Shown here: positions 3,008 through 54,286 of the stretch, in pieces
Layout of the letters: every line of letters starts with the position of its first letter
Position numbering within the stretch: position 1 is the first letter of the stretch
IMG/VR virus record: IMGVR_UViG_3300026549_000035
Span: 96,918 to 160,917 of that record
Length of the DNA stretch: 64,000 nucleotides
Direction: 5' to 3' (one strand)
Source of the DNA: a virus
Notes under the pieces: generated by a model
Told to the model about the DNA's origin: nothing
Database searches by the model: none
What the model saw: the letters and a program-made list of their open reading frames with translations, nothing else
Position numbers and translations under genes: made by a program

Positions 3008-3696
3008 TTTTTATCTCCATAATTCTTTAGTATTTTTTTCATATGATTTATCCAAAAATCTATAGAATAATCTAATTTCATTTTATTACAAAACTCACAA
3101 CATGATACGCAATTTTCAAAAAAATATCCTTCTTTGGAATTTACTCTATCAATACCCCGAGAATTCTAAGAAATATCTCCACAATAATAGCAAGGCTATT
3201 TAATAATAGCATAAAATTCGTCTTTAGTTAATTTAAAAGATAAATTACGCCTTTTAGCATTTTTTTTATAATAGGCATATTTATTTTCTTTTATATTGTA
3301 ATCATTACATTTCTTACACTTGTTGGTATAACCATCTAACTAAGCAGAATTTTTCCAAAAATTAATAATTGGTAACATTTGTTTACAACTATAACATCTT
3401 TTATGAGTAATATTTCCATCTGAATCAATCAATCGAAATTGAGAAGATTTTTTTCTAATTGTTTCTAATCGTGAACATCCACAATTGGTTGAAGTTCCAT
3501 TTTTTAATGTTCTTGCTGAAACCGCTTTTACAGTATGATTTTTACAATCACACTAACAAACCCATTTAGGTTTATTTCCATTATCATTTATAGTTCTATA
3601 TAAAACAGTCCATTTTCCAAATTTTTTACCAGTTAAATTTTCTGCTCTTCCTACAGATTTTTCTGGAAACTCTTTTTTTATAATGTCTAAATCCAT
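3004..3696 (-). CDS. HNH homing endonuclease inserted between the two halves of ligA; 4 in-frame TAG.
   Basis: Manual translation MDLDIIKKEFPEKSVGRAENLTGKKFGKWTVL...WVC-TAG-CDCKNH...PCYYCGDIS-TAG-NSRGIDRVNSKEGYFFENCVSCCEFCN shows the zinc-ribbon module plus an HNH motif. Confidence 0.6.
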
Positions 3697-4841
3697 TGTC
3701 CATTTTCATCCTTCGCTTTAGTTATTTGAGGAATTATTTGATTTTTCTTTGTTACATAAATTATTTGTCCTTTAAATGGACGTTCACCTAATAATTCTTT
3801 CATAATTTTTAAATTATGAAGTGATGCACGAGAAATTTCACTTCCATCTATATCTAAAGGTTCAAATATAGCAATTGGACAAATTTGACCAGTTCTACCC
3901 ATGCTCCATTCGATATCTTGTAATTTTGTCTCATAAGCTTCATCATAAAACTTATAAGCTATTGCATTTTTAAAATGGTGAGAAGTTTCTCCCAAACTTT
4001 TACCATATGCAATATCATTAAATTTAAAGACTATTCCATCTATTGGAATAGATTCTTCATAAGAAAGACTGGTTATTATTTGAACAACCTCTTCTAAATC
4101 TCGTTCTGGAGTTACACTATCACAGGGAACAATTTTAAATCCTAAATCAGAAAGTTTATAAAGTTTATTGAAAAAACTATTACTAGCACTATCTTCAAAA
4201 CCTTTTATAACTTCCCACGCTATAAAAGTTAATTTTCTTTTTTCACATTCTTTAGAATCTAATAATCTAATACTACCTGCCGCAAAATTACGAGAATTTT
4301 TATATTCTTTCTTAAAATCCTAAAAGTCTTTTGTTAAACAGACTATTTCACCATCAACAACAAGTTCTTTTTCATAATTTATTCTGTGTGGAATAGAAGG
4401 GATTACTAACGCATTATGTAAAATATCTTCTCCAATAATGCCATCCCCTCTAGTCTCAGCAGAAACTAATTTGCCATTTATATATCTTAACGAACAAGTT
4501 AACCCATCAACTTTTGCCATAGCTACCATTCGTCGATTATTAGAAAACGCAACCACACTATCAAGACTCTTGGTTTTTTCAAGAGAAAGCATTTTGTGAT
4601 TATGTTTTACTTTATCAAGTTGATTAACAACTTGATAGTTAACTTTTCGAGTGGGAGAATCTTCATAAGCAAAATCCATTGTAGTTTCAAAGTCTAAAAG
4701 AGTGAAATACATATCATCCCATTTTTTGTCACTTACTTCTGGATTTCCTTCATCATATTTTTTTGTCCAATAATTCAACTTATCTGTCATATAACGCATT
4801 TTTTCAAAAGTTGAATCACCCATATATGAAGTATCTATCAT
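3678..4841 (-). CDS. ligA: NAD-dependent DNA ligase, N-terminal fragment (adenylation plus OB domains); 2 in-frame TAG. Ends at TAA 3678-3680.
   Basis: AKVDG (the KxDG adenylation lysine), TRGDGIIGEDI, and the OB-fold tail. Track ORFs 4320..4841 and 3687..3995 lie in the same frame joined by TAG. Confidence 0.7.
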
Positions 4842-8158: not shown

Positions 8159-8407
8159 ACCGTGCGGATGCCAGTTTGCCATAGTATTACCAACAATATT
8201 AGCGCATTTGACATGAGGTTTTTTAGAACTAAAGCCTTCATCATATGCGTCATAGAGAATTCTTTTTGCTACTGGTTTTAAACCAGTTTTTGCATCTGGA
8301 ATAGAACGGTCAGTATTAACAGCAACCGCATATTCTATAAAATTTGTTCCAAGTTCATCAACTAAATCAGTTAAAATCTCATTCGGCATTATAAGTTGCC
8401 TCCTCAC
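8159..8407 (-). CDS. gyrA: Gyrase A subunit, exon 1.
   Basis: IPDAKTGLKPVAKRILY...KKPHVKCANIVGNTMANWHPHG, the conserved GyrA N-terminus. Confidence 0.75.
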
Positions 8408-9020
8408 TATGTTCTTTAATGTATATCTTTCTTGGGGTAACCGCAGTTCCCATTAAATTATCAAATAGCTTTTTAGCAGCAGTTGCATCACTAATTGTAA
8501 CCTGCTTAATAATTCTCTGTTCTGGATCAGCTAATGTTTCTTCTGTTTCATCAACATCTAATTCTCCTAATCCTTTAAATCTATTCACAACATATTTTTT
8601 ACCGAAATTTTCTTTTCTATATTTATCTAATGCAATATCATCTTTAAGATATTGATAACCTTTTGAAGTAGTTATTTTATAGAGCGGAGGAACGCCCGCA
8701 TAGATAAAGCCATCTTCAATTAATTGTGGGCAGAAACTCCAAATAAAAGTGTAAAATAGATTTTTGATATGCGCTCCATCAGAATCAGCATCACTCATAA
8801 TAATAATTTTTCCATATCTTATTTTATCTTTATCATAAACAACTTTCATTGTCTTTAAATCAATATCTAATCCAAAAGCGTCAATCATAGTCATAATTTC
8901 AGCGTTCTTTTGAATTTTATCAACGGTTGCTTTATAACAATTTAGTATTTTTCCTCTTACTGGAAGAACTGCTTGATATTCATTATTACGTGCTTGTTTT
9001 AGGTTACCTGAAGCACTATC
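8379..9020 (-). CDS. gyrB: Gyrase B subunit, exon 2 (Toprim and C-terminus).
   Basis: DSASGNLKQARNNEYQAVLPVRGKILN...IIIMSDADSDGAHI...RFKGLGE. Confidence 0.75.
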   Translation of the reverse strand, partial: DSASGNLKQARNNEYQAVLPVRGKILNCYKATVDKIQKNAEIMTMIDAFGLDIDLKTMKVVYDKDKIRYGKIIIMSDADSDGAHIKNLFYTFIWSFCPQLIEDGFIYAGVPPLYKITTSKGYQYLKDDIALDKYRKENFGKKYVVNRFKGLGELDVDETEETLADPEQRIIKQVTISDATAAKKLFDNLMGTAVTPRKIYIKEHSEEATYNAE

Positions 9021-10126
9021 CGTGTTTATCTTATATTTCTATAAGCACTGACTAACTCTTCACTCCGGTTTGTCAAGCCATCATCGTGTCCTCTATTTCC
9101 AATCACGTATCAATAGTAATTGTACTCTCCGTCTCACCGGAGATAGTCGATACAGCTTATTTTATATCTTTATAGGTTTTTCTCGTTATGGCATTATATA
9201 CGGTGCTCCAGGCTCTATCTGGAGCATATTTTTGCCAAATCTATTTAGGACTAATACCATTATCATAATCATATCTCATTTGTTTTACTTGTTCTTCGGT
9301 AAAACATTTTTTATTATTTGCGGCTACCTCAGAAGAATTTGCCTTTGCATTATGAGAATGCCAGTATTTATTTTCTTCAGTATGATACTCTGGATAAATA
9401 TTTTTCCAAGTATCAAACCACCAAACCTTCTAAAGACCTCTTTTTGAAATTTTATCTTTGTATTCTTCATAAACTATTTTGAATGGAATATGAGCATTAT
9501 AACATTCTCTAATATATCTTACATCTTCCTCATTCAATAATGCTCGACCATTTTTTGAACCAATCTAACTCCTATTTGGATTTTCATCTCCACCTGGAGT
9601 AGCATTATATCCATTGGTATAAGAATTATAATAATTTATAAAGAATTTTTCCATCTAATCAAGAAGTTCTTTAGAATATTCTTCTGGAGATAATGTTGCG
9701 ATAATTTCATAATTAAAATTATCAAAACCATATTTTCTTACTGCTTGATGAAATTGACTATTATAGTCATTTGCTTTATCATTATAAACAGAAGATTTAT
9801 GATTATATTGACGTCTTTCTATATCAATACTCTATCCAATATAACATTTATGATTTATTTTATTTTCATATTTATAAATTCCTATCATATCACTCTCTCC
9901 CTTCATTAAGATATAAAGGAGATACTGATACGATTTACTGGTTTTGTCCTAAAGATATAAAATCTTGCCACGGGATTGCCTTCGCCTAAACATATTTTGA
10001 CATATATGTATAACGGTAAGGTTTCCCCGTTAGCCTGCGGTTTATCAAAAATTCCTAGGAATTTTTCTTTTTCCACAAACCCCGCTGATAAAGCGGTAAA
10101 AAGGATTAGGGCAATAGTTTTCACTT
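9021..10126 (-). mobile_element. Group I intron in gyrB, carrying a GIY-YIG homing endonuclease.
   Basis: Exon 1 ends ...YITEG then a TGA read-through. Exon 2 starts exactly at the DSA of the universally conserved EGDSAGG motif, and the intron ends in G. Confidence 0.6.
9161..9905 (-). CDS. GIY-YIG homing endonuclease (intron-encoded); 4 in-frame TAG.
   Basis: GIYKYENKINHKCYIG-TAG-SIDIERR; the TAG falls at the invariant Gln of the YIGQS motif. Confidence 0.7.
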
Positions 10127-11398
10127 ACCCTCAGTTATATATATTTCACATTTTTTACGATCTTTACTAAAACAATCTGCCAGTTTAGAATCAAATTTTA
10201 ATGCTTTTTCTTTTTTATTTTGTTTCTCACGAATTGCATCTCTAGCTTTTGCTGCCGCTTCGCGAGCCTTTTTAGCCATTTTTGCTTTATCTGCGATTAT
10301 CTTAATATCTTTTTCATTTGCTGCCAACCATATACGAAGCTCTTCTGCAATTGCCGCTGTATATGGTGTCATTTCAAGTTTAGTAATACGAGTTTTTACC
10401 TGAGCATCATATGCAACATTTGGCGCAGTGATATTAAATACAATATACAATCCTTCTTGGATATCATCACCAGAAAGATTTCCATCACTATCTTTTAACC
10501 ATTTTTTCTCTTTAAAAAATCTATTAAATTCTCTTGTTAAAAGAGCTTTAATCTGAGTAATATGAGGTCCAACAGAAGTTAAACCTGTATTAACATATGG
10601 AACCATTGTCATTGAATAATTAGATGTATAAGTCATAACCATATCAATTTTATTTTTACCATTTTGATAATTTAAATTAAAACGATTATCATATCCAATT
10701 AATTCTTTATTTGCAACAGCGTCATCTACTAAATCATTTAATCCTTTTTCTGAAAAATAAGTTGTTTTTTCGCCAGAATTATTTAATTCAATAGTTAGAC
10801 CTGGGCAAAGACAAGCGATAGTTTTAAAAAGATTTTTTACTTCTTGAATATTTACTTTTGGATTAGTAAAAAATTCTTCACTTGGTTGCCACTGAACTAA
10901 AGTTCCAGTAGTATTATTTTCCCAAGCTCCAGATTCTCTTTTCTAAAAAACTCCTTCTTTAAACCATAAATGCTCATATTGTCCATCTCGATAAGTAATT
11001 ACTTCAAGCCAATGACTTAAAAAGGTTGTAATTTTACTACCAATACCAAAAGAACCTAAAGAAGTTCCTTCATAGGTTCCATCTTCACGATATTTTCCTG
11101 ATGTATTTAATACGCTAAAAGCAGCTTCAAGAATTGTTTTTCCATCATCTCGAAAGCTATTTGGAATAAAACCTTGTCCATTATCTTCTACGATACAAAC
11201 TTTATCAGCAATATCTATTTTAATTTTATTACCATGTCCTAGTCTAAATTCATCTACAGCATTAGAAAATATTTCTACTAATAACTATGTAGAATAAGTG
11301 GTATCTCCTGCGTAGACCCCTGGTCTAAGACGAGTAAACTCTAGAGGTGAAAGAGATTCGATACTTTCTTCATTATATAAAGTTTTATCTTGTATCAT
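10127..11398 (-). CDS. gyrB: Gyrase B subunit, exon 1 (ATPase and transducer); at least 1 in-frame TAG.
   Basis: MIQDKTLYNEESIESLSPLEFTRLRPGVYAGD...EIFSNAVDE...LADCFSKDRKKCEIYITEG. Confidence 0.7.
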
Positions 11399-17943: not shown

Positions 17944-19413
17944 TTATTCAGAAGTCGGAGGGGTGGCAGCTTTACCACCAAAATAACCAGCCAGCATAGA
18001 CCCAAGATCAATACCGGTAGCATCCTTAACGCCATGAATGACCTTGCTAACAGTAGTAGTAATATCACCAACTAATTTAGAAGAATTATTTTCACCATAC
18101 ATGGTAATAGAATCTACATTTGCAAGAGGAGCAGAAGCAGCAGCAGTCATTTCAGGAAGTGCTTTCATAAGCATTTCTACAATAGAAGCATCTTTCATTT
18201 TAGCTTGAGCTTCTGCTTTCTTCTCAATACCTGCGGCTTCCGCTTCGCCCTTAGCCTTAATAGCAGCAGCTTCAGCATCACCCTTAGCCTTAATAGCAGC
18301 AGCTTCAGCTTCAGCAGCATATCTTTCGGCATCAGCCGCAGCTTTACGAGCTTCAGCTTCTTTTTGAGCTACAAGCAGGGCAGCTTCTGCTTCTTGCTCA
18401 CGCTCATACTTTTCAGCTTCTGCTTCTCTCTGACGGGCCGCAAGTTTTGCTTCAGCCTCCTTTTCAGCCTTATACTTTTCAGCATCAGCCTGTTTGCGAA
18501 CTATAGCATCAAGCTCATACTCTTTTAATTCAATCTCTTTTTGCTTAAGCTCAGCTTCACGCTCAGCCTTTGCGATGTTTGCATTAGTTTCTGCAACATC
18601 TTTCAACTTACGCTGATTCTCAGCCTCAATACTCTTTGCGGCTTCAGCGCGAGCTTTTTCAGTATCAGCTTCTTTTTGTAAATTAGCCTGTTTAATAGCT
18701 AAAGCATTATTGCGTTCAGCCATCTCTTCCGCAGCTTTAACCTTAGCATCATTTGAAGCTTTGGCTGCTTCAGCCTGCGCGATTTCTACATCTCGGTCAG
18801 CCTGCGCTTTAGCAATCGCCGCATCTTTCTTAATGCGAGCAGTATTGTCAGCACCAAGGTCTCGAATAAGACCATTATCATCTGTAACATTCTGAATATT
18901 ACAAGACAAAATTTCAATACCGAGTCTTTCCATATCCTTTGAAGCTTTTTGCATTACCTGGTCAGAGAAAGAATCTCTATCGGTATTAATGCTCTTCAAA
19001 CTCAATGTGCCGATAATCTCACGCATATTACCCTGTAAAGAGTCTTGCAGATCTAAAGTAATTCCTTCTGGACTTTTATTTAGGAAGTTCTTAGCCGCAA
19101 GAGAAATACCTTCAGGTGTAGGTAAGATACGAACTTTGGCAACCGCGTCTACATTAACATTGATAAAATCATTCGTAGGAACGGACTGTTCTGTCTTAAT
19201 ATCTACAGTCATCTGACCAAGATACAATTTATCTAGACGTTCCAAGAAAGGAATTTTTACACCAGCTCGTCCAATTAAGGTTCGCCCCTTTTTCTTAAAA
19301 CCAGAAATAATATACGCCTGATCCGGTGGGGCTTTTACATAGCCAGTAGCAAATAAGATAATTACTAAAATAGCAATTATTCCGCCGATAATGTAGGGAA
19401 GATAAGTTGTCAT
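17944..19413 (-). CDS. SPFH/band-7 (flotillin/YqiK-like) protein with a long A/E/K-rich coiled-coil tail; GC-richer than the local background.
   Basis: N-terminal TM, an SPFH core (ISGFKKKGRTLIGRAGVKIPFLERL...), 489 aa with no TAG. Confidence 0.7.
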   Translation of the reverse strand: MTTYLPYIIGGIIAILVIILFATGYVKAPPDQAYIISGFKKKGRTLIGRAGVKIPFLERLDKLYLGQMTVDIKTEQSVPTNDFINVNVDAVAKVRILPTPEGISLAAKNFLNKSPEGITLDLQDSLQGNMREIIGTLSLKSINTDRDSFSDQVMQKASKDMERLGIEILSCNIQNVTDDNGLIRDLGADNTARIKKDAAIAKAQADRDVEIAQAEAAKASNDAKVKAAEEMAERNNALAIKQANLQKEADTEKARAEAAKSIEAENQRKLKDVAETNANIAKAEREAELKQKEIELKEYELDAIVRKQADAEKYKAEKEAEAKLAARQREAEAEKYEREQEAEAALLVAQKEAEARKAAADAERYAAEAEAAAIKAKGDAEAAAIKAKGEAEAAGIEKKAEAQAKMKDASIVEMLMKALPEMTAAASAPLANVDSITMYGENNSSKLVGDITTTVSKVIHGVKDATGIDLGSMLAGYFGGKAATPPTSE

Positions 19414-40698: not shown

Positions 40699-42252
40699 TT
40701 AATAAATACAGGAATATCTTTCTTCATTAAGTTTATCAAACATTAATGTAAAAGCGTTTTTATTTTGCATCACTTGTTCAAAAAGGTTCTGACTAAATCC
40801 AGAAATAAACTGAACATGACCTTCAGCTTTCATTGGAATATTATCTTGACGTGCGTCTAAATTCCAGAATGTAATACCTGGCATCTCATATCCTGCATTA
40901 TGCCAACGTTTTTCAATAGTTTCAAAAAGTGTCTCATTTGCAACACAATTCTCTCTACCATAGCTCCAGCGGTTAAAGGAAGTAGGACCGCCGCATACGC
41001 AGTTATTAAATTCCATATCACTCAAAATAATAACTTGTTTAGGTATATCTTCTTGAGGAATATGATTTTTAATTACAAGGTTAAGCATTTGATCAAATAC
41101 AGATTCAATGTTAGTGCTTCCACCCCAATCAGCCTTAGCAATTCTATTTACTTTATCTACAAAATCAACGCCTTCTACTTTAATAAAATCAGGATGATTG
41201 CTAAAAGTAAAGAAATGATTTGCAAAAGGTCCTGAATTATATTCTGCACAATACATACCAAGAGAAATAGCAACCGCCATGGGAGTTCCATACATACTTC
41301 CACTAGTATCTACAACGGCAATGCCATTGAAAGCATAACCATTCATAACATCATGAAGATTCTCCCAATATTTATTAATCATAAGACGCTCGACGTTATC
41401 AAGATCTTGACTTTTATCACCATAGCCGTAGCCATAACCCCAGCGACCAAAAGCCATAGCTTGCTTAGTTACTTCATAAGGATAAAGAGCCTTGGCGTTA
41501 ACCTTAGTGGTCTTATCCTTTGCGAAGTTTTCATAAGAAACTACTTCCTTCTCAGACTTCATGCGTTCAATGTCATGACGAGCAAAAGCGTTTCGATAAA
41601 TCATACCTGCGCGAGAAGGAATCTTATCGAATTCGATTTCATCCCACTTTCCAGCAGACATAAGCTTCTCAAGAACGCGAATACGTCCACGAAGAATAGA
41701 CAAAGTCTTACGATATTCACGATGACTCATATTCAAATAAGTGCGAGTCTTATTTGCAAGTCTACGTGATTCAAGTGAACTTGTATTTTCAGACTTCAAC
41801 CACTTTGCAAGCAAAGAAGGGGTCTTACTTTGAACATCAAGAGCCAACTGGTCTTTCATAATCTTAAAAGCGTCCTTTTCAAGGGAAGTCCCTACAAAGA
41901 CATAAAGGTCATCCCATCTCCGATATTCTGGAATATATTTGAGATTGCGACGCATTACTTCAGGATGTTCATGCGCAAGCCATTTTGCAATTATACGAAA
42001 AAAACGTCTTTCTCCTTGACCTCCTCTAATATCTGCGATATAAAAAAGACATTTCATCGCATAAGTCTCATTCTCTTCAAAAGCTTTTTTAAAGAGATTG
42101 ATACAGTCAACATCGCTTCTTGTGCGATAAGATGCGCCAAGAGCAAACAAGTCAAGCAAACCATTCATAGTTGACTTATAGGTTAAGGCTAAATTCTCAG
42201 TATAGGTGAGATTTTGCTTATTATCCAAAGCAGTTACAAAACGATTACTCAT
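40699..42252 (-). CDS. rsr: Ro60/Rsr-like protein: an alpha-helical TROVE-type N-terminal region plus a C-terminal vWA domain with a MIDAS motif.
   Basis: A 517-aa uninterrupted ORF. Roughly 300 aa of helical region, then GIAVVDTSGSMYG (a DxSGSM MIDAS motif) ...ISLGMYCAE...ILSDMEFN. A 240-nt leader begins at promoter copy 5. Confidence 0.55.
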   Translation of the reverse strand: MSNRFVTALDNKQNLTYTENLALTYKSTMNGLLDLFALGASYRTRSDVDCINLFKKAFEENETYAMKCLFYIADIRGGQGERRFFRIIAKWLAHEHPEVMRRNLKYIPEYRRWDDLYVFVGTSLEKDAFKIMKDQLALDVQSKTPSLLAKWLKSENTSSLESRRLANKTRTYLNMSHREYRKTLSILRGRIRVLEKLMSAGKWDEIEFDKIPSRAGMIYRNAFARHDIERMKSEKEVVSYENFAKDKTTKVNAKALYPYEVTKQAMAFGRWGYGYGYGDKSQDLDNVERLMINKYWENLHDVMNGYAFNGIAVVDTSGSMYGTPMAVAISLGMYCAEYNSGPFANHFFTFSNHPDFIKVEGVDFVDKVNRIAKADWGGSTNIESVFDQMLNLVIKNHIPQEDIPKQVIILSDMEFNNCVCGGPTSFNRWSYGRENCVANETLFETIEKRWHNAGYEMPGITFWNLDARQDNIPMKAEGHVQFISGFSQNLFEQVMQNKNAFTLMFDKLNEERYSCIY

Positions 42253-42502
42253 AATAATTTTCTCCTTTTTTTATTGCTTCCTCTTGGACAAGAGGATTTA
42301 TATAGAAAATAAAAAAGTAATTGGGGCCTCTTATAATATCCTTCCATATTCACACAAAACTTTGGAGACTTACTTCCTATGTCCTTTAATTGGTGAAGTG
42401 ATGTTTGTATACCTCCCATCCCGTCTCACGTAACGACAGCCCTATGAATAAGAATGCCGCACAATGAAAACTCAGAGTAGTGGGGAATTAATTACTTTTT
42501 TA

Positions 42503-42544
42503 TTTTCTATATATATTATAATATATTTTTTTTAAAAAATCAAT
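42503..42544 (-). promoter_or_regulatory. Promoter repeat copy 5, upstream of the Ro60-like gene leader.
   Basis: Same 42-nt consensus. Confidence 0.55.
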
Positions 42545-42620
42545 TTAAGATTTTTTATTTGCATTATTTAATCATTTTTAAAATAAAAAAAACGATAAAG
42601 TATTATTAACTTTATCGTTA

Positions 42621-42965
42621 TGGTAGGATGAGAGGGATTCGAACCCTCACTTGATGGATTTTCTTACTACTCTATGTCACCATAGCCGTATTGCTACGTT
42701 GTAGTCTGGAGCACGTCTTTACCATGTGCGGCCGCAGATAATACGACCTCATTTAGGTAGTCGGTGTATGCTCTCTACACTCAGATTTTAGAGCTTTATT
42801 TTTACCTCTATAATCTTAGCACGGCGTTCTGTTAGCGCCTTCGCCGTTTTAGCCAACTTCTACTCTAAAGATTTCTCTTTAGGCACTCTCTGGATTTTAT
42901 CCAGTCTACGATATCGTAGAGCTAACATCAAAGTCCATTGCCTCTGCCGTTGGGCTACCATCCCA
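42621..42965 (-). tRNA. Class-I tRNA with anticodon UAA, interrupted by a 268-nt group-I-like intron between positions 34 and 35 (5' exon 42931-42964, 3' exon 42621-42662).
   Basis: 5' exon GGGATGGTAGCCCAACGGCAGAGGCAATGGACTT; 3' exon AAAATCCATCAAGTGAGGGTTCGAATCCCTCTCATCCTACCA. The intron begins after U and ends in G; A73 discriminator; CCA encoded. Confidence 0.55.
42663..42930 (-). mobile_element. Putative group I intron in the tRNA anticodon loop, at the U34/A35 position.
   Basis: Same insertion position and AAAAUCC 3'-exon start as the classic tRNA-Leu(UAA) intron; no ORF inside. Confidence 0.45.
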
Positions 42966-43146
42966 TATTTTCTTTTCCAAGACGGCTCAAAATATTTTTC
43001 GGAATCGAACCGAATCGCTTTATTTTCCAGACAAAGTGTGAAACCAAATCACTATAATATTCTTGAAAGAAAATTTGCTGTATCCGTCTTTATTATTTAT
43101 TATTTTTTATTTTCTATATATATTATATATTATTTTTTTATAAAAA

Positions 43147-43860
43147 TCAATTGATATTTTTATAATCAGAACTATGGAATGGTAAATTATATCCTTTACA
43201 CCATTTTCTAATAGTGTTATCTGATACATTAAATAATAGTCCAACTTTAGAAAAATTTCCTTTATTCTATAAAAGAATTTCTTTTAATTCTTTTATAGAA
43301 GGTCTGTTTTTTACTTTTCTAATTCTCTTTTTTTCACAATTCATACATCTAGTAGCACCTTGAGAAATTTCTTTTCCACAATCACAGCATAAATAAATTT
43401 TCTTTTGTCTATTTTTTATATTTTTACTACAAAATGTATCTAATTGCCTATCGCAATTTGGACATACCCAACGTAAATTTTCTAATCTATCATCAGTATT
43501 TATTCCATTAATATGGTCTAATGTTAGAGTTAATTCTTTACCATTCCAAAAAGGTTCCTAACCACATATTGCGCATTTATATTTAGTATAATTTCCTTTT
43601 ATATACCATCTTCTTAATACAGATTGTGAAGCGGTAGAATTTTTAATAAAAATATTTTTTTCTGTTCTTTCTATCTTTTCTGGTTGTAAAAAATGTTCTA
43701 ATGAAATATTCTATTTTTTACAATATTCAATAATTATTTTTGCTGGTCTACTATTATTACTATATCCTAATTTTGATTGTAATTCTTTAATAGAATTACT
43801 TTCTTTAACATATTTTTTTAATAATTCTAAATCACATTTTTCTATATATGAATTAGCCAT
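43147..43860 (-). CDS. Free-standing HNH endonuclease; 3 in-frame TAG.
   Basis: LDHINGINTDDRLENLRWVCPNCD and several Cys4 clusters. Confidence 0.6.
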
Positions 43861-43968: not shown

Positions 43969-44043
43969 TGGCGCCGGTGCTGGGAGTCGGACCCAGACAT
44001 GCGGTTTTAGAGACCGCCGCACTAACCGTTATGCAACACCGGA
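43969..44043 (-). tRNA. Amber suppressor tRNA (anticodon CUA), probably Gln-accepting.
   Basis: TCCGGTGTTGCATAACGGTTAGTGCGGCGGTCTCTAAAACCGCATGTCTGGGTCCGACTCCCAGCACCGGCGCCA: anticodon loop CU-CUA-AA, G73, weak 1:72 pair (both Gln-tRNA hallmarks), CCA encoded. Promoter copy 7 sits immediately upstream. Confidence 0.75.
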
Positions 44044-44058
44044 TTATATATATCTCTT

Positions 44059-44100
44059 ATTTTCTATATATATTATATCAAATTTTTTTATAAAAATCAA
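44059..44100 (-). promoter_or_regulatory. Sigma70-like promoter repeat (copy 7) directly driving the tRNA-CUA suppressor gene.
   Basis: On the minus strand, TTGATTTTTATAAAAAAATTTGATATAATATATATAGAAAA, i.e. TTGATT-N17-TATAAT. Confidence 0.6.
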
Positions 44101-44261
44101 GTTTTGGTTGCCAGAGCGTCAACTCTGGCAACGCTCCCAACTTATTGGCGTAAGAAGGGTTTTTCGTGTTAATCTCGGGAAACACCGGTCGCCGCCTTTT
44201 CAAGACCGCTTCCAAAACCCGCTAGTACTAACATATATTAGGAATTATAACCTAATATATC

Positions 44262-46079: not shown

Positions 46080-46695
46080 TTATCCATATCGCCATTTATA
46101 TTTAGCAGCTGTTTTTCGACGACCCGTACAGACTTCTGTAATATGTTGTTTAATAGTTGTATGTTTACAACCTGTTAATTTTTGTTTTACCATATAACGA
46201 GCGGCTTCGTTGGTAGAAGGAAAACTATGTAAAAATTTTCCTTCTAAATCATACATATTTGTAATTTTACCATATTTCATAGTTTGAACTTCTTTAATTG
46301 AAGCTACTTTAATATTATTACTATGTAAAATTCGAGAAATAGTGCCTTGATCAATAGATAATTTTAAAGCTACATCTTTAACACTACCTAATTCTTTATA
46401 AGTGGCAATTACTAAATCATAATCAATATATTTTCTTCCATCGCCCCCTAAAGTGGCATTATATCCATTTTTAAAAGAACGATAATGTTCAATCCAGTAT
46501 TTTTCTCTCTCTTCTGGATTGTTTGTTTCTTCTATTTGTTCGATATGAAAATGTTCAATTCCATATTTTTTCATAGCAGAATATAAAGGACGTTTTTCAT
46601 TATGCTCTTTAAAAGCATCTCGACAATGTTCTTTAAATCTTTTTTCAATAGAAAATTCTGTTTTACCGATATAAATTTTCTAATTTATATCATTA
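46080..46695 (-). CDS. GIY-YIG homing endonuclease; 1 in-frame TAG, unclear (possibly non-ATG) start.
   Basis: YIYKITNDIN-TAG-KIYIGKTEFSIEKRFKEH plus the C-terminal E.YWIEHY...GYNATLGG (track ORF 46080..46574). Confidence 0.5.
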
Positions 46696-46801
46696 GTAAT
46701 TTTATAAATGTATGCTATAATTAAACAGCTCCTTTTTTATTTTTTTTTAGGAAATTAGTAAAAACAGTATCGCCACGAGAAGGCCTTCCTTATGATACCG
46801 A

Positions 46802-46883
46802 GCTGAAGGTGGGATTCGAACCCACGCGGGCAAAGCCGACGGCTTACAAGACCGTTCCAATCGACCACTATGGGACTTCAGCA
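46802..46883 (-). tRNA. Class-II-shaped tRNA (3-bp D stem, 13-nt extra arm) with anticodon loop CUUGUAA, reading as UGU; U73; no CCA encoded.
   Basis: GCTGAAG...CTTCAGC perfect acceptor; ACGGT-CTTGTAA-GCCGT. Confidence 0.45.
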
Positions 46884-48113: not shown

Positions 48114-49068
48114 ATATTAGCAGATTAAATCTTTTACAAGATCTTTATCTGCTTTTTTTCTTAACTAAATCAAAAAATAAAAATGAATTTGAAAAATTTG
48201 CGTGAACCTTCGCTCTACAATTTTTATATTTCCTGCTTGTTAGACTACCGAGGAAACAAGTCTGAGCATTAGGGGAGCGACCCCGACACTTCTTGCCCCA
48301 GTCCCAAAGGACCAATTCTCGGAGAGGAATGTTTACCTCCAACTTTCACCCGCCGTTCAGAAGTTTTTATTCATAAACTGCTATCTATTTTCCATTAATC
48401 GTTGCTTATGGGCTACTCGCGCGTTGACCTTACCTTATAGCCTTGTTACCAAGACATCACAGCAGACCCTCTTATTAGCATTTCCTTGGTTTGCAAAGGT
48501 TGCTAAGCCTATTACCTAACAAGGATTCTTCCCCATCTGGGGCGTCTATTATGAGGGCGATAAGACACCGTCCTAGCTTAGAAAATATAACTTGCGCTAT
48601 TTACCTTCGGCGTTTTACTTTTATAAAACAATTTCAATTTATCACTAAAAAGAAATTTCACAATATTTCAAAGTATCCTTTGAAGTTGTTTAGCCCGCAC
48701 CTTAGTGTGGTAAATACCTCAGCACAATGGCATTTGCTCTGCACTGAGTTACGCAAATTTTCAAAGTTCTTGTAAGAAATTAGTGGAAACAGCATCGCCA
48801 CGAGAAGGCTTCTTACTTGATGCCATATGAGAGGTTTTAAACCATCCGAATGGGAGTCGAACCCATCCTGTGGGGAATCAAACCTTGCTTACCTCTCGGG
48901 TTGCCCCGCAACCTCATGAAACGATTTTAAGGTTAATCGAGAACCTTGGTAGTGTGGCGCTTGCCCAAAGGCTTACCTCGCGACCGCAAACCAATCTTTA
49001 AATGCTGGACTCTTCTAATCCTACATCCTACCTCTTTTGGTCTTACACTTGCTATTAAGCATGATGCC

Positions 49069-51670: not shown

Positions 51671-51746
51671 TGGTGTTCAAGGTGGGATTTGAACCCACAA
51701 AACCTTGGGTTTGAGCCAAGTATGTATGCCGTTCCATCACTTGAAC
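51671..51746 (-). tRNA. Class-I tRNA with anticodon CAA, A73.
   Basis: GTTCAAGTGATGGAACGGCATACATACTTGGCTCAAACCCAAGGTTTTGTGGGTTCAAATCCCACCTTGAACACCA; canonical 76-nt cloverleaf with a 5-nt variable loop. Confidence 0.6.
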
Positions 51747-52091: not shown

Positions 52092-52867
52092 AATAAATCT
52101 CCTTAGTTAAAAAGATTTGCAATCATTAAACCAATCTATATAATACCTACTATTAGAATGAAGAAAGAAAAATTACCTTCTTTCATTTCATTAGTTATCT
52201 TAGAAAAGAATTTTCGCATTTTTTCTTCCCCCATTTCTTTTTATTTATATATTATTTTTATTGCTTTTATTTAAAAACATTAAATGAACTCCCATTTTCT
52301 TGAATATAAGCAATAGTTTCTAAAACAGTTTTCTTTCCATACTTTTTTACTAAAGCATCAAAATAATAACTATCATTATATCCAGTATTACCAATAAAAG
52401 GATATATATATTTTCCTACATCTTTCAACAGAATTTCATCCATTATTATTATCTCCTTTTTTTCTAGACACACTATAATCTTTGGTCAAATACGTTGCCA
52501 ACTGCGCCATTTTACAAAATGAAGTAAAAGTCGGATTCGAACCGACGACACCCTGATGTTACAGAATATAATTTTTGCTGTGCGTGTCTGAAGGATATAA
52601 AAAATATATAATTATTTGGCGGGTGCGACTTTCTCCCGCATCTCTCAGATTGTAACAATATAAACAATCTTGTCATACCATCGGCGTATAGGCGTCGCGG
52701 AATCTTCCTACTTCAAATAATTATAAACGTAAGATTGATAAGGAACTCAGGTCTGCCTTATATCTTTTGCATATGTGAAGAGCGACTTCACGCAAATGTA
52801 GAGAGCCTCTATTTTTTCTACTACAATCTTACTTAGCATTGATTGAAGGCTAATGCTCAATACCTTC

Positions 52868-54209: not shown

Positions 54210-54286
54210 TGGTGCCGCGGGTGGGATTCGAACCCACACTGTATTGCTTCTAAGGCAACCGCCTCCTGCCATTGGGCTACCGCGAC
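54210..54286 (-). tRNA. Class-I tRNA with anticodon UAG, A73.
   Basis: GTCGCGGTAGCCCAATGGCAGGAGGCGGTTGCCTTAGAAGCAATACAGTGTGGGTTCGAATCCCACCCGCGGCACCA. Confidence 0.6.

Follow-up and report, generated by a model that had tools for sequence, protein, structure and literature searches.

A short-arm phage tRNA-Leu(UAA) gene very probably interrupted at the U34/A35 junction by an IC3-type group I intron

What interrupts the only split tRNA gene in a 64,000-nucleotide (nt) stretch of viral DNA (IMG/VR record IMGVR_UViG_3300026549_000035, positions 96,918 to 160,917; hereafter the window, numbered from its first letter), and which tRNA would that gene yield once the insert is removed? The source is a large, AT-rich gut or rumen phage in which TAG is recoded. 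When introns were allowed, ARAGORN returned exactly one split tRNA gene in the window, at c[42621,42964] on the minus strand. Its spliced length is 76 nt including CCA, its anticodon is UAA, and the intron, of 268 nt, falls between positions 34 and 35. We consider it very probable that this is a phage tRNA-Leu(UAA) gene split at U34/A35 by an IC3-type group I intron that lacks an open reading frame (ORF). Introns of the IC3 tRNA-Leu(UAA) 34/35 type are well known; this one appears to be an ORF-less representative of the type in a phage. The first-pass annotation, made from the letters of the window, had already proposed a tRNA(UAA) with an insertion at 34/35; its location was right, and its start, given as 42965, is 42964. 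The parts of the gene, from ARAGORN with introns and from reading the sequence, are as follows.

42931 to 42964, minus strand: 5′ exon, tRNA positions 1 to 34
42663 to 42930, minus strand: intron of 268 nt, predicted group I (IC3 type), without an ORF, on the evidence of covariation, the family profile, homologues that pass the Rfam threshold, and matches to IC3 introns
42621 to 42662, minus strand: 3′ exon, tRNA positions 35 to 76

The 5′ exon consists of the acceptor strand GGGATGG, TA, a Leu-type D-arm (GCC CAACGGCAGA GGC), A, the anticodon stem strand ATGGA, and C32 U33 U34. The 3′ exon continues with A35 A36 A37 A38, TCCAT, the variable loop CAAGT (5 nt, ending in U48), the T-arm GAGGG TTCGAAT CCCTC, the acceptor strand TCATCCT, A73, and CCA. 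Both exons are intact and, when joined, give a perfect cloverleaf with CCA in ARAGORN. The anticodon stem ATGGA/TCCAT and the loop CUU/AAAA (here and below, a slash in a loop or junction marks a splice site) are as originally described, and so are the GU pairs at the two ends of the acceptor stem (G1.U72 and G7.U66); the 3′ acceptor strand had been written one base out of place as CATCCTA and is TCATCCT (positions 66 to 72) followed by A73. The junction GGACTT/...GTAG.A.G/AAAATCC recurred exactly in 178 parsed loci on other contigs, and the split gene is therefore no chance match. It is situated at the 3′ end of a minus-strand array of 34 tRNA genes, and neither default ARAGORN nor the Rfam tRNA model called it in the window, solely because of the intron.

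A covariance search, the check that the first-pass annotation had proposed for the insert, gave a divided answer. An Rfam scan of the whole window at gathering thresholds returned no group I match, and in a sensitive scan the window copy reached only 16.5 bits (E=0.1) against RF00028, for which the gathering score is 50 bits, with the alignment out of register and running past the tRNA. Since Rfam on the window copy alone does not settle the question, relatives were collected. A blastn search of 50,697 phage records gave no match to the split gene, and a 17-mer across the exon/intron junction hit 23 loci, nearly all of them by chance and only one of them (L070) relevant. Loci fetched through the neighboring Ro-like gene contained homologous inserts, and a core motif with a degenerate P7′ strand matched 106 stretches of viral and at least 120 of metagenome sequence, whose sources were rumen and human gut; 196 of 235 motif matches fell inside split tRNAs (ARAGORN with introns). 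Homologues are present at more than 200 phage and metagenome loci in the two collections. Two of them exceeded the RF00028 threshold (L220 at 68.8 bits and L214 at 61.5 bits) and four more scored 48 to 50 bits (L120, L248, L212, and L234). The window copy aligned with these passing and near-threshold homologues throughout the core, and it matched the family profile at E=1.9e-48 (nhmmer). Because its own score is only 16.5 bits, the group I case rests on the homologues and on covariation. A secondary structure was derived by eye from a first alignment that left out L029 and L035 and was tested on 55 distinct compact copies aligned with MAFFT, to which the counts for intron elements below refer. 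Its elements in the window, 5′ to 3′ along the transcript, are listed here with the support for each.

42882 to 42888, minus strand: internal guide sequence GAGU(G)CC, predicted to pair with exon GGACUU as P1; GAG in 55/55; pairing read from the sequence and the same in the Nostoc and Acidobacteriota IC3 introns
42890 to 42920, minus strand: P1 loop, enlarged by two additional hairpins, UCUACG-AUAU-CGUAGA and CUGGA-UAAAA-UCCAG; minimum-free-energy (MFE) fold
42866 to 42881, minus strand: P2 hairpin with a GAAA tetraloop; 6/6 pairs changed on both sides, loop GAAA in 49/55
42853 to 42858, minus strand: 5′ strand of P3, AGUUGG, pairing with 42759 to 42764
42821 to 42847, minus strand: P4 (ACGGCG/CGCCGU) around a reduced P5; P4 100% paired, one pair changed on both sides
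42784 to 42815, minus strand: P6 hairpin; MFE fold, inner two tested pairs covary
42768 to 42783, minus strand: J6/7 (UGAGUGUA) and 5′ strand of P7, G-[A]-GAGCAU, with the guanosine-binding motif; GTGTAGAGA near-invariant, 53/55
42759 to 42764, minus strand: 3′ strand of P3, CCGACU, crossing P7 as a pseudoknot; covariation
42721 to 42758, minus strand: P8, with ACC/GGU base, UAA bulge, and variable stem-loop; base 100% paired with two pairs changed on both sides, distal part from the MFE fold
42708 to 42720, minus strand: J8/7 (AAAGAC) and 3′ strand of P7, GUGCUCC; covariation, and Rfam aligns the homologous block to its AAGAUAUAGUC consensus
42666 to 42705, minus strand: P9 (ACUAC/GUAGU) around P9a (GCAA loop) and P9b (5 bp, GUGA GNRA loop); P9a and P9b covary
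42663, minus strand: omegaG, the final intron nucleotide; G in 55/55

The order of these elements is canonical (P3, P4-P6, P7, P3′, P8, P7′), with P3 (73-78/167-172 in intron numbering) and P7 (156-163/217-223) crossing in a pseudoknot that flanks the P4-P6 and P8 domains. The core on which the first-pass annotation had staked its reading, P3 to P7 with a guanosine-binding site, is thus present, and it covaries. Standard pairs filled 91.7% of the cells in the proposed structure, compared to 28 to 43% when the partners were slid by 1 to 3 columns, a contrast that is inflated because the structure was derived by eye from some of the sequences counted. Cells changed on both sides numbered 386, compared to about 110 after shuffling, and none of 500 shuffles reached 386. 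Compensatory changes were found in P2, P3, P7, the base of P8, P9a, and P9b. In P3, five of six pairs were standard in 100% of the sequences and all six were changed on both sides; the outermost pair, A73-U172, was unpaired in 27 of the 46 sequences scored. P7 was 98.4% paired, and three of its pairs were changed on both sides beyond the invariant G-C, G-C, and A-U pairs of the motif G156-C223/bulged A157/G158-C222/A159-U221, which was the same in 55/55. This motif is the predicted guanosine-binding site, and its arrangement matches the Nostoc and Acidobacteriota introns. At the 5′ splice site, exon U34 stands opposite G43 of the invariant GAG of the guide, in the U(-1).G wobble of P1. The insert begins after U34 and ends in G, as had been claimed. 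The L9b loop was of the GNRA type in 54/55. The MFE fold of the window copy independently gave P2, P4, P6, P7, and P9b (z=-4.3), and the Rfam alignment of the homologues placed P3, P4, P6, J6/7-P7, P8, and J8/7-P7′ as in the structure drawn by eye.

To which group I subgroup does the family belong? An nhmmer profile of the phage family was compared with published reference introns that carry subgroup labels (supplement of PMC13011429). The strongest similarity was to a Bacillota_A tRNA-Asn intron (IC3; E=7.4e-21), followed by an Acidobacteriota tRNA-Leu(UAA) 34/35 intron (IC3; E=1.7e-14) and the tRNA-Leu(UAA) intron of Nostoc PCC 7120 (IC3; E=9.5e-7). An IB2 intron was matched partially, in P7′-P9 only, and the match to an IA1 outgroup intron was not significant. 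Similarity to the IC3 references and the compact architecture (no P5abc, GNRA loops on L2 and L9) argue for an IC3 assignment. The likeness to the cyanobacterial and plastid tRNA-Leu(UAA) group I intron that had been remarked on at first pass holds as homology, beyond resemblance, because the profile matches the IC3 references; it is modest for Nostoc (E ~1e-6) and stronger for the Acidobacteriota Leu and Clostridia-type Asn introns. Position 34/35 in tRNA-Leu is listed as a classic site, and introns encoding HNH proteins have been reported in tRNA-Leu(UAA) of Bacteroidota (PMC13011429).

The features in common with the Nostoc-type IC3 introns of bacterial and plastid tRNA-Leu(UAA) extend over the whole element: the host anticodon UAA and insertion at 34/35, the P1 design in which exon GGACUU is paired with GAG(U)(G)CC with a U.G wobble, P2 with a GAAA loop straight after the internal guide sequence, J6/7 GUG(U/C)AGA followed by the P7 G-C/[A]/G-C motif, J8/7 (U)AAAGA(C/G), and a P9 around GNRA-capped hairpins with omegaG a few nucleotides later. 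There are differences as well. The Nostoc-type introns reside in cellular or plastid genomes and the window family in phage genomes, where P6 or the region near P1/P2 holds an HNH ORF in many members; the window subclade has the two extra P1-loop hairpins and a vestigial P5; and the host tRNA in the window has no long variable arm. The extra hairpins are specific to the window's subclade, with equivalents of other sequence in L054, L223, L221, and others, and P5, read by eye, is a hairpin of 4 to 5 bp in most relatives compared to a stub of about 2 bp in the window copy.

Intron lengths in the family are bimodal, 203 to 551 nt (densest below 400 nt) and 708 to 1,087 nt. The long introns contain ORFs of 148 to 209 aa with the motif HH.DG...N...CPNCH and borderline Pfam HNH/HNH_3 matches, and in several of them (L009, L011, and L070) P6 is the place where the HNH ORF is inserted. 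No ORF, and hence no homing endonuclease, was found in the 268-nt window intron, which is an ORF-less derivative or passenger of a mobile family. Further evidence of mobility came from pairs of nearest introns in which one host tRNA is short-armed and the other long-armed: L098 and L114 were 90% identical, L187 and L180 91%, and the window copy and L223 78%, with unrelated tRNA bodies in these pairs. Because introns of short-arm hosts are nearest to those of long-arm hosts, lateral homing is suggested, and repeated lateral invasion through the shared anticodon-arm target would be the simplest reading. Related introns were seen in long- and short-arm tRNA-Leu(CAA) genes (L096, L142, L149, L150, and L202) with the junction CUC/AAA, where C at -1 pairs with the same GAG guide and fits the C(-1) type of Williams 2020. 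The core motif also occurred in split tRNAs with other 3′ exon starts, not of the Leu(UAA) kind (L099, L110, L157, L169, L178, L185, and L253), a hint that the family has spread to further tRNA genes.

A comparison with Lak megaphages is instructive. These too are large, alternatively coded gut phages with introns in tRNA genes, which are termed "enigmatic" and left unclassified in the passages that describe them (Devoto et al. 2019, PMC6784885). In Lak-C1 (MK250029.1), a tRNA-Leu(UAA) gene has an insert at 34/35 that is homologous to the window family (E=7.5e-14). The Lak-C1 host tRNA is long-armed whereas that of the window is short-armed, and Lak genomes are ~540 kb compared to contigs of ~110 to 250 kb for the window relatives. 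The Prevotella phage Lak-C1 locus (L324, MK250029.1 331300-333200, positions 690-1424) apparently holds two group I-type inserts in this tRNA-Leu(UAA), the second in the D-loop with GGTGCAGAGACTATAC...AAGATATAGTCC core motifs.

The unusual part of the gene appears to be the host tRNA rather than the intron. In place of the long variable arm (class II) of bacterial tRNA-Leu it has the 5-nt loop CAAGT, and the earlier remark that the long arm is lacking is borne out; the short arm, however, is not peculiar to this gene and seems to be a recurrent trait of phage tRNA-Leu. Among 130 distinct host genes of the intron, ~121 (~93%) were long-arm tRNA-Leu(UAA) and 9 were short-armed (73 to 77 nt, the window's included). 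The other Leu genes of the window are the following.

54210 to 54286, minus strand: short-arm Leu-like tRNA, anticodon UAG, with Leu-type D-arm and A73
51671 to 51746, minus strand: short-arm Leu-like tRNA, anticodon CAA, with Leu-type D-arm and A73
59549 to 59634: tRNA-Leu(AAG), the sole long-armed Leu gene of the window

All four Leu genes have a 3-bp D-stem, an xAAyGGCAGA-type D-loop, and A73, and the D-arm of the split gene matches that of the long-arm tRNA-Leu(AAG). Counts of unique genes across all fetched loci were as follows.

CAA: 19 short-arm, 16 long-arm
UAG: 24 short-arm, 18 long-arm
UAA without intron: 5 short-arm, 17 long-arm
UAA with intron: 9 short-arm, ~121 long-arm
Ser: 1 short-arm, 116 long-arm
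Tyr: 3 short-arm, 38 long-arm

Short-arm tRNAs with Leu anticodons had A73 in 51/55 and the A15-U48 pair in 52/55, compared to about 50% and 40%, respectively, of other class I tRNAs at the same loci. The identity set listed for E. coli leucyl-tRNA synthetase (LeuRS) consists of A73, A14, A15-U48, G18G19, and the tRNA-Leu-type D-loop (PMC9976931), and all of it, including the A15-U48 Levitt pair, is found in the window gene. A long arm is not always needed, as E. coli LeuRS charges minimal variants without it and human mitochondrial tRNA-Leu(UUR) is short-armed (PMC9976931). The animal mitochondrial tRNA-Leu(UUR) has the anticodon UAA and no long arm and is still leucylated via A73 and A14 (PMC9976931), but it is an unrelated lineage with a dedicated mitochondrial LeuRS and no intron, and serves as an analogy only. 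The split gene is the only one with a UAA anticodon in an array that otherwise covers the code (ARAGORN), and UUA is the commonest Leu codon, accounting for 41% of those counted in 12 large ORFs. Because A73, A14, A15-U48, G18G19, and the 3-bp Leu-type D-stem are kept, the product is most likely charged by LeuRS, and with moderate confidence we take the spliced RNA to be a leucine tRNA.

The spliced tRNA also found, by blastn, annotated tRNA-Leu genes of 73 to 77 nt that share its body plan. They come from four cultured phages, namely, Cronobacter phage LPCS28 (UAA and CAA), Bacillus phage Deep Blue (UAG), Cyanophage P-RSM6 (UAA), and Enterococcus phage vB_Edu_21C1 (UAG). Unlike the window gene, all of these are uninterrupted. 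The common plan is N7-TA-GCCC-AAyyGGCAGAGGC, a 5-nt variable loop ending in T, and A73. Short-arm tRNA-Leu genes of phages are thus already present in databases, and limited literature searches returned no discussion of them.

The split gene belongs to a small unit, together with an AT-rich tRNA-like element, that is framed by two signals.

43122 to 43150, minus strand: promoter-like TTGATT-17-TATAAT within a 62-nt cassette that lies upstream of both the split tRNA and the tRNA-like element (consensus match only)
42591 to 42619, minus strand: intrinsic-terminator-like hairpin and T-run directly after CCA

A rigid pattern for the promoter cassette had no match, and a repeat search then recovered the AT-rich 62-nt cassette in three copies (42496-42557, 43103-43164, and 44053-44114). 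Lying ahead of tRNA units and of the Ro-like gene, it is probably a phage promoter module. The tRNA-like element itself (42989-43062, minus strand; 31% GC) was called tRNA-Ser(gga) by ARAGORN, has no long arm, and lies under the Rfam tRNA threshold; it is kept at 83% identity beside tRNA-Leu in L005, L177, and L280.

From these features we infer how the gene would be expressed, spliced, and used. Transcription would start from the promoter cassette and end at the terminator directly after CCA. In the precursor, exon GGACUU would pair with the guide GAGU(G)CC to form P1, with U34 in the U.G wobble, and the P3-P8 and P4-P6 domains, held by the P3/P7 pseudoknot, would form the catalytic core. An exogenous guanosine would occupy the G158-C222 site of P7 and attack the bond 3′ of U34; omegaG268 would then take the same site, and the freed 3′-OH of U34 would attack the bond after omegaG. 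CUU would thereby be joined to AAAA, giving a 76-nt tRNA with the anticodon UAA, which the host LeuRS would most likely charge and which would read UUA and UUG, the commonest Leu codons of the genome. The intron would derive from a mobile family whose longer members carry HNH homing endonucleases, its own ORF having been lost or never present.

Several observations weigh against this reading, in addition to the low and misaligned Rfam match of the window copy and the inflated contrast with the slid controls. P6 aligns badly at its base, where the outer two pairs fail on the MAFFT alignment, so that the helix is 56% paired overall; P9 is uninformative for covariation because it is invariant; and the HNH assignments in the long relatives are at or slightly under the Pfam thresholds. 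The reduced P5 (~2 bp) and the two extra P1-loop hairpins depart from textbook IC3 introns and could lower the efficiency of self-splicing. Such departures, together with the low Rfam score and the missing homing endonuclease ORF, are what one would cite for a group I relic that no longer splices and leaves a disabled tRNA pseudogene. We regard that as quite unlikely, as none of the columns that are invariant in all 55 sequences has changed in the window copy (the GAG of the guide, J6/7, the P7 guanosine-binding motif, J8/7, and omegaG), all core helices can form in it, and both exons are intact. The odd P1 and P5 features are common to a whole subclade (L054, L221, L223, L265, L267, L277, and others), whose extra hairpins show compensatory changes, and a pseudogene would be the sole UAA gene of an otherwise code-covering array in a genome where UUA is the top Leu codon. 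The possibility that the insert is something other than group I, namely, a group II intron, a bulge-helix-bulge intron of the archaeal type that a protein endonuclease excises, or an insertion element, has almost nothing in its favor except the empty Rfam gathering scan for this stretch; given the demonstrated core, the absence of another Rfam family at a meaningful score, and the lack of an ORF or visible terminal repeats, we give it next to no weight.

Two further alternatives accept splicing and dispute the product. On paper, CUUU/GAUG...AAG/AAAAUCC permits several 7-nt loops, and ARAGORN gave tta, ttc, ttt, or gaa for some relatives, so that sites off by one base might yield the anticodon UUA (an ochre suppressor) or GAA (Phe). 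These registers were ruled out by the U.G and omegaG rules: only CUU/...G/AAAA places U opposite the invariant G of the guide and G at the 3′ end of the intron. Whereas CTT is constant, the base that opens the intron is variable (T 144, C 18, A 9, G 7) and hence lies outside the anticodon loop, and TAA is the main stop codon of this genome; shifted sites are thus extremely improbable. A better case, if still an unlikely one, can be made that the spliced RNA is not a leucine tRNA and is charged by another synthetase or serves uncharged as a decoy or regulator, with UUA and UUG decoded differently or the RNA acting outside translation. A35 and A36 are common to tRNA-Phe, the phage already recodes TAG, and Aquifex LeuRS is described as sensitive to variable-arm orientation (PMC2377443). 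However, A73, A14, A15-U48, G18G19, and the 3-bp Leu-type D-stem are kept far more often than in other class I tRNAs, and short arms are confined to Leu anticodons, Ser and Tyr genes being long-armed with few exceptions. The charging of arm-less variants by E. coli LeuRS and the short-armed human mitochondrial tRNA-Leu(UUR) also speak for leucylation, and the same body is found in cultured phages whose hosts are E. coli relatives, Bacillus, Enterococcus, and Prochlorococcus, for which wholesale reassignment of Leu codons is implausible. A leucine tRNA spliced from a group I precursor therefore remains the preferred reading.

The locus adds no new splicing mechanism, because the intron is of the textbook tRNA-Leu(UAA) group I type. 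What it adds is a well-defined, HNH-bearing IC3 family that is common in tRNA-Leu genes of large gut and rumen phages, a concrete identity for at least one of the "enigmatic" Lak megaphage tRNA introns, and an explanation for why standard tRNA finders miss the sole UUA reader in such genomes. A recent review holds that tRNA-Leu is long-armed everywhere but in animal mitochondria, and widespread short-arm phage tRNA-Leu genes with the full Leu identity set run against that rule. If leucylated, they would be natural experiments on LeuRS recognition and candidate defense-evasion tRNAs. The retron-Eco7 and Septu systems cleave tRNA-Tyr at its variable loop. A broader proposal, tentative and on the whole doubtful, is that many phage lineages have evolved a short-arm tRNA-Leu series, charged by LeuRS via A73 and the D/T-loop core, that evades host factors targeting class II tRNAs, and that the IC3 intron has jumped repeatedly from long- to short-arm genes. 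Evasion might follow, by analogy with retron-Eco7 and Septu, because there is no long variable arm for host factors to recognize or cut, and the jumps because the intron homes on the shared anticodon arm alone.

The window belongs to a large, AT-rich phage. Among the proteins that it encodes are GyrA, a GH25/CHAP endolysin, an RNA ligase, a Ro60/TROVE-like protein, and an MVP-shoulder protein. That TAG is read as sense is seen in the NAD-dependent DNA ligase (~3680-4841, minus strand), whose frame crosses an in-frame TAG: the read-through product matched the full adenylation and OB domains at 166.5 bits compared to 81.1 for the truncated ORF. This fits the presence of a suppressor gene in the array.

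43969 to 44043, minus strand: tRNA(CUA) suppressor gene

An assignment to the zeta crAss-like phages was considered on the strength of TAG recoding and fragmented genes and was not established.

Other features of the window deserve mention. The Ro60/TROVE-like protein (40699-42252, minus strand), encoded directly downstream of the split tRNA, has DUF2828 and DUF7788 and belongs to phrog_850 ("RNA-binding protein"); among cultured phages, its closest homologues come from large Bacillus phages (~39% identity). gyrB is in at least two pieces (8379-8894 and 10121-10642, both minus strand) about 1.2 kb apart, the upstream one ending at TGA before out-of-frame sequence, for which an intron or intein is possible; Rfam gave no group I match there. 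Unusual for a phage are an 825-aa protein with Major Vault Protein shoulder and Vault_3 repeat domains (30743-33220, minus strand) and a separate SPFH/flotillin-like protein (17944-19413, minus strand). Inside the tRNA array, Rfam detected a full-length ROOL RNA (48184-48772, minus strand; 332 bits) and a skipping-rope RNA (52611-52721, minus strand; 43.8 bits). An 83-nt tRNA with the Thr anticodon UGU (46800-46882, minus strand) has an unusually long variable region, and a free-standing ORF of 164 aa between tRNA genes (46080-46574, minus strand) carries NUMOD1, a domain that homing endonucleases use as a DNA-binding module.

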